Positions 47,602 through 48,170 of a stretch of 64,000 nt of DNA are shown here, one piece after another. Position 1 is the stretch's first letter. Each line of letters begins with the position of its first letter. The notes below the pieces were generated by a model. That model did no database searches. It was not told the origin of the DNA and worked only from the letters and a program-made list of their open reading frames with translations. This stretch comes from Escherichia coli (GTDB taxonomy: Bacteria > Pseudomonadota > Gammaproteobacteria > Enterobacterales > Enterobacteriaceae), in assembly GCF_051903065.1 (NCBI RefSeq), contig NZ_CP178438.1; one strand, 5' to 3'. The translations under genes and the position numbers were made by a program.

Positions 47602-48170
47602 GTCGATCCCCTGACAAGGAAATGTGAACCATGGACATCAACGCGTCATAAATGTTTACGCAAGTGCACAATGCACCCTTTCCACTATCAACAAGGAGGA
47701 GCAGAAACTGTGTAAATCGTACAATGGTAAGACTTATCAAAAATACAGGTTAATTTTGGTATTTAAACCTTTTTTACTTGTTAGTATGATACAAAGGCTT
47801 TCAAAAAAGCTGGGAAATTCAACAACTCTTGGAAATTATGGACTTTGTCCCGCGGCTTTAATCTGACGGCCGCGTTCCTTTTTTGACTCAATTATTGACC
47901 CCTTCTCTACGCAACTTCAGTTCCCACCACCAACTTTGCGGCAGTTTCATAGGATGAATGTCTAAAAGAATAATGGTGAGCGATAAGAAAACGACTGAAT
48001 AACTGCACATTTTCGCTCGAAAGCTTCCTGTCAGATCCATAGCGAATCAAGTGCTGAATGTCACAGTATCGAATAGAAAACAGTGACGATCTAACCCTTC
48101 AAGAATATTCTACGATTGTTCTGTTTAGGAAAAGCAAGGCGGGAAGTCGGGAGATAAGTCATTGATAAAG

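Follow-up and report, generated by a model that had tools for sequence, protein, structure and literature searches.

The yodB-serU spacer

The locus zinT-yodB-serU-mtfA-asnT of Escherichia coli contains a 569-bp spacer between yodB, whose open reading frame (ORF) ends at 47601, and serU, the gene for tRNA-Ser(CGA). It was analysed here within a 64,000-nucleotide stretch of contig NZ_CP178438.1 (assembly GCF_051903065.1), referred to as the window; adding 1,995,297 to a window position gives the corresponding position in MG1655 (U00096.3). The spacer had been singled out, from the sequence alone, as an unexplained interval of about 570 bp, and its coordinates hold. RefSeq lists no feature inside it in MG1655, nor in the 60 best- and spread-ranked of 5,424 matching E. 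coli records, a few of which carry the insertion sequence IS1.

The original prediction suggested that a small RNA (sRNA) or small protein gene might lie here. The first part of this suggestion is supported by a measured 3' end, a predicted promoter, selection on the unit, its retention in strains without yodB, and homology to phage RNAs, while the second part is rejected. Taken together, the evidence supports an unannotated sRNA gene of about 89 nt in the spacer, transcribed toward serU; the parts of the locus are collected in Table 1.

Table 1. Features in and around the yodB-serU spacer, in window coordinates
Feature	Position	Strand	Description
yodB-serU spacer	47602..48170		569 bp; mosaic of parts; MG1655 2,042,899-2,043,467
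Decayed small phage ORF	47624..47735	+	Phage version 41 amino acids (METKNGHQRPV...KEMK-stop); window version MNHGHQRV...; stop codon lost
Upstream element (TAAGACTTATCAAAAATACAGGTTAATTT...)	47728..47761	+	Common to phage and plasmid copies; less constrained in E. coli
Predicted sigma-70-type promoter	47762..47790	+	-35 TTTAAA (47762-47767), 17-bp spacer, -10 TATGAT (47785-47790); invariant in 8 diverse E. coli
Predicted small RNA, about 89 nt	~47796..47884	+	5' end estimated; 3' end by Term-seq
Hairpin 1, GGCUUU-CAAA-AAAGCU	47796..47811	+	Position of the covarying 5' hairpin of phage relatives, with a different sequence
A/U-rich single-stranded linker GGGAAAUUCAACAACUCUUGGAAAUUAU	47812..47839	+	Candidate base-pairing (seed) region
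Double-stranded RNA cluster S-166	47838..48262		p19-captured RNase III products, K-12 (PMC7373196, Table 1)
Hairpin 2, GGAC-UUU-GUCC	47840..47850	+	4-bp stem, directly 5' of the terminator; stem unchanged in all family members examined
Intrinsic terminator	47851..47884	+	7-bp G+C stem, 10-nt loop UUAAUCUGAC (phages: UUAAUCCGAC), tail UUCCUUUUUU
Fast-evolving stretch	47885..48040		27/156 variable sites in 8 E. coli; insertions and deletions relative to E. albertii
Second conserved block	48041..48170	-	Adjoins the serU 3' end on its downstream side; E. albertii about 84% identical; C-rich, G-poor; no hairpin with U-run
serU, tRNA-Ser(CGA)	48171..48260	-	Converges with the small RNA gene; used for attachment by prophages, among them Sp14 and SerU-LTIIb

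A terminator with a measured 3' end

The terminator-like hairpin noted in the spacer is real, with a stem in which CGCGGCU (47851-47857) pairs with GGCCGCG (47868-47874) and a tail, UUCCUUUUUU, at 47875-47884. Term-seq in MG1655 (Adams et al. 2021, supplementary file 1) maps the 3' end of a plus-strand RNA to 2,043,181 (listed sequence AATTATGGACTTTGTCCCGCGGCTTTAATCTGACGGCCGCGTTCCTTTTTTGACTCAATTA); this is window position 47884, the final U of the tail, so that a plus-strand transcript ends in vivo exactly where the hairpin was predicted to end it. The Term-seq end carries the class "orphan" and appears in the sheets for LB at optical density (OD) 2.0 and for M63 glucose, not in that for LB at OD 0.4.

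A simple terminator scan missed the hairpin because the 10-nt loop exceeds the 8-nt loop limit of the scan. Hairpin 2 and the terminator fold together at -14.9 kcal/mol (z = -2.15), with 4 of 200 shuffled sequences folding as well, and by folding energy alone the hairpin is only modestly unusual. That it lies beyond chance follows from the Term-seq end at 47884 and from the near-invariance of the unit across E. coli.

Predicted promoter, transcript and conservation

A conserved sigma-70-type promoter is predicted 95 nt upstream of the measured 3' end. Transcription starting 7 +/- 2 nt past the -10 hexamer, taken with the beginning of the covariance model match described below (47794), would give the RNA a 5' end near 47796. 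The predicted transcript comprises hairpin 1, the linker, hairpin 2 and the terminator, and its invariant segment is GUCCCGCGG. The element upstream of the promoter (47728-47761) could be an UP element or a regulator site.

Conservation was followed in an alignment of the window with seven other E. coli genomes spanning the identity range (K-12, four without yodB and two others with yodB). Across promoter and RNA (47762-47884), a single position of 123 varies, a G>C at 47813 found only in K-12, against 8 of 38 immediately upstream (47724-47761) and 27 of 156 immediately downstream (47885-48040). The contrast between unit and flanks (1/123 versus 35/194) is significant (Fisher p = 2.2e-7). Next to serU, a second block (48041-48170) varies at 2 of 130 positions. 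The first conserved block opens at the -35 hexamer and closes at the measured 3' end, a pattern that supports strong purifying selection limited to promoter and transcript. The single change in MG1655 falls in the linker, and the reference strain may have an atypical allele.

On a broader scale, the segment 47760-47925 is found at an identity of at least 95% in 5416 of 5426 complete E. coli genomes (99.8%), and at no less than 99% in 4233 records. The relative conservation of the hairpin and of an 80-amino-acid ORF that overlaps it had been proposed as informative, and it is: the hairpin unit is near-invariant in E. coli, and the ORF start is missing from about 43% of genomes, in which the spacer match begins only at spacer position 123 (window 47724). 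Within the aligned set, promoter and RNA are identical in the strains that lack yodB.

Outside the species the picture changes. E. albertii has zinT, a spacer and serU, and retains the serU-adjacent block (84% identity) as well as the upstream element (86% over 47724-47773); it lacks about 110 nt covering the RNA body and hairpin, and the covariance model, run with filters off, finds no match in its spacer. The serU-mtfA pair is conserved in many Enterobacteriaceae. In 70-odd other species of the family, no homologue of the spacer lies beside serU and the DNA past the serU 3' end is unrelated, which precludes footprinting beyond Escherichia; in three other Escherichia lineages, shiA-amn adjoins serU instead.

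Phage and plasmid relatives

A sensitive BLAST search with window 47724-47895 returned four records: the lambdoid phage vB_EcoS-683R6, a Salmonella salamae IncF plasmid, a Citrobacter plasmid, and phage SerU-LTIIb, whose record holds its own copy together with the chromosomal copy beside the attachment junction. In these relatives both ends of the unit match at equal spacing and the middle is divergent. Scanning IMG/VR for GGACTTTGTCCCRCGR yielded at least 120 contigs, from which 53 distinct units of the same type were extracted. All 53 share the promoter layout of a -35 hexamer, a 17-bp spacer and a TAnnnT -10 hexamer, the -35 being TTTAAA in 52, and the window promoter has the same layout (TTTAAA, 17 bp, TAnnnT, about 50 nt before the GGAC hairpin).

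The transcripts predicted for the relatives are 80-95 nt long. Their 5' hairpin covaries (GUCCCC/GGGGGC, GUCUCC/GGAGAC, GUCUCUC/GAGAGAG) and is followed by a U/C-rich single-stranded segment, AAUACUUAUUAUUCUUCA, and an invariant GGAC-NUU-GUCC, so that hairpin 2 differs across the family in its first loop base alone. The terminator has the conserved loop UUAAUCCGAC and a compensatory change of an inner stem pair from C-G to U-A. In the three-hairpin family consensus, 95.7% of cells are paired, compared with 40-53% when the partners are slid; compensatory changes occur in five of the six pairs of hairpin 1 and in one terminator pair, and the window sequence forms all three helices. The linker GGGAAAUUCAACAACUCUUGGAAAUUAU is confined to the chromosomal copy, with AAUACUUAUUAUUCUUCA at the equivalent place in phage copies, and the chromosomal 5' half occurs in no phage variant among the units extracted.

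To compare the window with the family, a covariance model (R1) was built from 22 phage and plasmid units only, with the window copy left out. It matches the window at 47794-47883 on the plus strand with 61.2 bits (E = 6e-12), over model positions 1-82 of 82 and with hairpin 1 compensated. By these comparisons, the window RNA is a member of a phage and plasmid "GGACNUUGUCC-terminator" small RNA family, defined in this analysis. A second R1 match in the window, at 26887-26970 on the minus strand (19.6 bits, E = 0.012), lies antisense in a 245-amino-acid ORF, involves mainly the terminator part and was set aside as chance.

Database searches gave no competing assignment. Rfam 15 (cmscan, E <= 10, window 46500-49500) reports two tRNAs and sub-threshold noise only, and on the phage copies Rfam models find no family save a sub-threshold STnc100 match on the opposite strand. 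No published name was found for the RNA or the family, in a literature coverage that is incomplete, so an existing name is possible.

The phage unit in lambdoid prophages occupies the interval from Q or the phage tRNAs to holin and runs counter to late transcription. About 70 nt downstream lies a second, related RNA unit, GGAC(G/U)UUGUCCCACGAG-loop-CUCGUG-U7, and a 41-amino-acid ORF lies upstream. As DNA, the second unit reads GGAC(G/U)TTGTCCCACGAG-loop-CTCGTG-T7, seen at L091 1676-1720, at L092 1573-1605 and at many IMG/VR loci. The STnc100-like match adjoins the pair of units on the late-transcript strand.

Relation to yodB

The hairpin had been considered too far from yodB to be its obvious terminator, a judgement that stands in part. 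If it were nonetheless a distant yodB terminator, the RNA would be the end of a 283-nt 3' untranslated region (UTR) of yodB, possibly processed, and no separate gene would exist. Between the yodB stop and 47850 there is no hairpin with a U-run, and the Term-seq data of Adams et al. (2021) list no second plus-strand end between yodB and serU and none assigned to yodB. Because the end at 47884 is thus the only one listed, yodB mRNA may likewise terminate at the hairpin in yodB-carrying strains, and some or all of the RNA could be a UTR tail.

What speaks for a separate gene is that the unit is intact and identical in the roughly 43% of genomes without yodB, where zinT has its own strong terminator upstream. 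In addition, the yodB stop does not mark the start of conservation, which opens at the -35 hexamer, and the relatives in phages and plasmids stand alone, with identical promoter spacing and without yodB. An explanation by the yodB 3' UTR without a separate gene is unlikely on the evidence just given; an sRNA gene and a yodB 3' UTR can coexist in yodB-carrying strains.

The absence of yodB is itself a polymorphism. About 43% of complete genomes lack yodB; the missing segment also takes in about 340 bp on its upstream side and 122 bp on its downstream side, and 222 bp of unrelated sequence (L002 1279-1500) stands in place of window 46729-47723. In a yodB-less genome, the 222-bp sequence comes after zinT and supplies a clean terminator (AGACACG...CGTGTCTTTTTTA); past it, the sequence common to both types resumes at 47724. 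The hairpin of the zinT terminator, AGACACG...CGTGTCT, lies at window 46822-46848; strains without yodB have TTTTTTA behind it, whereas the window has GTATATT, so zinT may read through into yodB there.

Proposed origin from a phage module

The DNA around the RNA unit also resembles phage sequence. A global alignment of window 47591-48060 with phage sequence reveals weak homology on both sides of the unit. Upstream lies the remnant of the small phage ORF, of which the part up to 47723 is missing from yodB-less E. coli. Downstream, at about 47930-47965, lies a remnant of the second unit (CAACTTTG..CGGCAGTTTCATAGGATGAATGTCTAAAAG, against GGACTTTGTCCCACGAGTATTCCAGGATGCTCGTGTCTTTTTTT in phages; the phage unit is GGACTTTGTCCCACGAG...CTCGTGTCTTTTTTT). 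Judged by this alignment, an old phage module is present, of whose three parts one has been kept almost perfectly.

These observations suggest that, before the diversification of E. coli, a lambdoid prophage fragment came to rest next to the serU attachment site. The fragment would first have held the small ORF, the RNA unit and the second RNA unit; its neighbours would then have decayed, while the RNA unit was retained under purifying selection and gained its own 5' half.

Alternatively, the whole spacer could be an inert prophage scar in which transcriptional noise halts at an old phage terminator, with no function for the host. Such a scar would suit the decaying phage DNA of the surroundings, the weak expression signals and the low classifier score in RIL-seq data (see below), as well as the fact that no target pairing is substantiated and that E. 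albertii lost the RNA body. A neutral scar, however, should decay like its flanks, contrary to the 1/123 versus 35/194 variable sites (p = 2e-7), and the unit persists in 99.8% of genomes, in lineages with and without yodB alike. Homogenisation by prophages does not explain this uniformity, the 5' half being found on the chromosome only and no more than about 200 genomes having a close (L091-type) prophage copy. The scar is an improbable account, somewhat more so than the yodB UTR.

Convergence with serU

Transcription in the spacer is not limited to one strand. Cluster S-166, at 2,041,159-2,041,583 in old coordinates (converted by adding 1976 and then subtracting 1,995,297), is among the 15 most abundant double-stranded RNA (dsRNA) clusters overlapping small RNAs, and its reads run beyond the tRNA through read-through (PMC7373196). 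It spans the DNA from the two hairpins to the serU 5' end; since this dsRNA cluster covers 47838-48262, both strands are transcribed across the spacer. It appears that serU read-through RNA ends or is trimmed at the hairpins and that some plus-strand transcription passes the terminator, and the two read-through RNAs together would form the dsRNA.

This arrangement raises the option that the locus acts mainly in cis, with the double hairpin serving convergent transcription as a two-way stop or as 3'-end protection, so ending or stabilising the minus-strand RNA that reads through serU, and the plus-strand RNA serving only as an antisense partner for RNase III processing. The minus-strand trailer of serU has no terminator in its first 136 nt (near the tRNA, no U-run is longer than 4), the dsRNA cluster stops at 47838, on the minus strand two bases past the hairpins, and the block adjoining serU is conserved. 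Both hairpins also fold on the minus strand (-20.3 kcal/mol, z = -2.6), but no U-run follows them there and Term-seq lists no minus-strand 3' end. Moreover, a cis role leaves the conservation of promoter, hairpin 1 and linker unexplained, nor do the phage relatives converge on the 3' end of a tRNA; as the main function it is very unlikely.

The block at 48041-48170 is probably the 3' trailer of serU or a Rho-loading region. It holds the palindrome AGAATATTCT. A 35-amino-acid ORF within it (48058-48165) was rejected as coding, its ATG being lost in E. albertii; none of the ORFs in the spacer matches Pfam or PHROGs.

A small protein is the least credible alternative and is rejected: although the 80-amino-acid ORF (GTG start, 47624-47866) and a 7-codon ORF, AUG-GAC-UUU-GUC-CCG-CGG-CUU-UAA (47838-47861), are both present, the latter with a weak GGA 5-6 nt before its AUG, the former, which had been described as having no recognisable features and indeed matches nothing in Pfam or PHROGs, starts in DNA missing from about 43% of genomes and reads into the RNA gene because the phage ORF lost its stop codon, whereas the start of the latter is ATG in 37 of the 53 distinct units, ACG in 15 and CTG in 1, its nucleotides being otherwise invariant in a pattern of RNA structure and not of codons.

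Hfq association and possible targets

Public interaction data contain the locus as a node, "yodB.serU.IGR", in the Hfq RIL-seq data of Melamed 2016 as re-tabulated by Bar et al. 2021. In exponential phase the node has 39 chimeric fragments and one partner (15 interactions, SIC 0.094324), identified as ompF by an exact match of these feature values to the ompF row; the stationary-phase counts are 33 fragments and two partners. The relation SIC = S - 1/k gives S = 1 in both conditions, so the RNA is always second in the chimera, as is usual for sRNAs. The U-tract length of 6 recorded for the node equals the UUUUUU at 47879-84 and fits the plus-strand RNA.

With ompF, the RNA could form a duplex of -19.1 kcal/mol through an 11-bp core between sRNA nucleotides 30-40 (CUCUUGGAAAU, 47826-47836) and ompF +133 to +143; ompF should be regarded as a lead and not as an established target. 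In its most likely mode of action, the RNA would work as an Hfq-associated base-pairing RNA, in which the U-tailed terminator and the invariant GGACUUUGUCC hairpin would serve as scaffold and the single-stranded linker at 47812-47839 would contact target RNAs, ompF mRNA being the sole partner that can be named so far.

Several observations pull the other way, in addition to the possible use of the hairpin by yodB mRNA. At about 2000, the Term-seq score is low next to those of abundant sRNAs, DsrA among them. The promoter and start site are predicted from sequence, and the supplements of SMRT-Cappable-seq and Cappable-seq, whose tables are possibly incomplete, list nothing at the locus coordinates. 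The RIL-seq tables are strandless, so the plus-strand origin of the reads is presumed, and the authors' classifier scores the node at 0.010 and 0.046, below its 0.1 cut-off, because partners are few. The locus is missing from the Hfq-CRAC sRNA candidates of O157 Sakai (Tree 2014 Table S2). Finally, the ompF duplex is no better than shuffled sequences (mean -23.3; 95% at least as good), and unconstrained duplex prediction is uninformative.

On balance, the spacer is likely to hold a domesticated, phage-derived sRNA gene that has its own promoter, is probably Hfq-associated and converges with serU. A more far-reaching proposal, offered tentatively and with rather less than even confidence, is that this is a domesticated prophage sRNA of an undescribed, widespread family, which was fixed beside serU, had its 5' seed half swapped and became an Hfq-dependent regulator of the host. 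The mRNA of ompF, a porin and phage receptor, could be among its targets, and the phage copies would reprogramme the host with another seed, CUUAUUAUUCUUCA. If this is true, the locus offers a dated case, before the E. coli radiation, of a core sRNA born from phage DNA.

Comparison with known small RNAs

The closest parallels are found among prophage sRNAs. PasA and PasC are "pathogenicity-associated" prophage sRNAs of enteropathogenic E. coli (Pearl Mizrahi 2021; Zhu, Shabalina & Storz 2026 preprint). Like the phage relatives of the window RNA, they lie just upstream of holin and lysis genes, opposite to late transcription, often as a tandem pair and with STnc100-like sequence nearby; PasA is about 84 nt long and Hfq-dependent, with an intrinsic terminator, a conserved 3' part and a variable 5' part. 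Position and size suggested an identity with PasA/PasC, which was rejected: R1 finds nothing in YYZ-2008 (NC_011356), where its best match, elsewhere in the genome, has E = 0.62, and the units in the esterase-holin spacer of that phage have a different terminator (AGCCAGCAC...GTGCTGGCU). The Pas genes are reported missing from K-12 and from 88% of E. coli (Pas preprint), whereas 99.8% of genomes have the window RNA gene, which is not part of any recognisable prophage. Between esterase and holin, the Stx1 phage YYZ-2008 (L217 23500-23760, minus strand) has two tandem promoter and terminator units, presumably of PasA type, and in Sakai Sp14 the equivalent unit is split by IS629 (L096 3500-3614).

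The anti-sRNAs AgvB and AsxR of enterohaemorrhagic E. coli (EHEC) prophages and other convergent sRNAs of the prophage moron site (Tree et al. 2014) are Hfq-bound, convergent to the PR' late transcript and located between Q and the lysis genes. As in the present family, their 3' module is conserved and their 5' region, which determines target specificity, is variable. They differ from the window RNA in length (51-60 nt) and in sequence, and no sponge partner is evident here. An identity with AsxR was dismissed, the 3' end of AsxR from Sakai Sp5, GCCCGAACCCACUCGGGCUUUUUU, being unrelated, and the Rfam models of AgvB, AsxR and Esr41 match neither the window nor the phage copies.

Prophage-derived sRNAs kept in E. 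coli K-12 include DicF in Qin, IpeX in DLP12, and EcsR2, which arose from a decayed phage gene. As in the present case, a regulatory RNA of phage origin is held by the host after prophage decay; those RNAs, however, are in recognisable cryptic prophages or are strain-variable, whereas the window RNA sits in a 570-bp scar without a phage gene and is near-universal and near-invariant. EcsR1 and EcsR2 themselves are not candidates, since they map to uspF-ompN and yagU-ykgJ (PMC4350180).

There is also a likeness to 3'ETS-leuZ, in which a tRNA-adjacent spacer appears as an Hfq RIL-seq node (leuZ.yecA.IGR is the known case), and the serU trailer does run far into the spacer. The difference is that the 3' end, promoter, 6-U tract and conserved unit of the window lie on the plus strand, opposite to serU.

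The window RNA gene is not in the annotation of E. coli K-12, the reference organism for bacterial small RNAs; the sole traces of it in public data are an "orphan" 3' end and a RIL-seq node with a low score. Confirmation of the gene would add a near-universal E. coli sRNA and a new prophage sRNA family in the niche of the Pas and anti-sRNA families. It would also be a clear instance of selective retention, in which one unit of a phage module is frozen while its neighbours decay, and would indicate that core regulatory RNAs can come from phages. The sRNA gene would account for part of the abundant dsRNA cluster at serU, and the locus suggests that the tRNA-flanking "scars" of integrative elements can conceal functional genes.

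Integration and other events at the locus

Both serU and asnT are active integration sites. Sakai Sp14 (2,668,145-2,712,172, L096) and the LT-IIb toxin phage are inserted at serU, and in Sakai about 44 kb parts the sRNA gene from the intact tRNA. In other strains, integrase genes adjoin asnT or a serU remnant (L094, L088, L002 3266-3447), and IS1, IS3 and IS66 insertions occur inside the spacer in some genomes.

Three E. coli phage-like plasmid records of 35-64 kb (H101-H103; L090 2501-2844) carry window 47893-48236 at 96-98% identity. The plasmid-borne segment comprises the spacer from 9 nt past the terminator tail together with the 3' 66 nt of serU. It resembles sequence flanking the attachment junction of a serU-integrating element that was picked up through aberrant excision.

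Two further plus-strand Term-seq ends lie beyond serU. One, found in LB at OD 0.4, is at about 48424 (MG1655 2,043,721), inside mtfA and about 70 nt into the ORF, past the hairpin CTGCCCTTCCCTGGCAG (48397-48413), and may mark a premature termination or processing site. The other, also classed as "orphan" and present in all three conditions, is at about 49438 (MG1655 2,044,735), roughly 110 nt past asnT, where the hairpin GCGCCCTCGACC...GGTTGAGGGCG is followed by TTTTG; it could represent the asnT terminator or a tRNA-trailer RNA.

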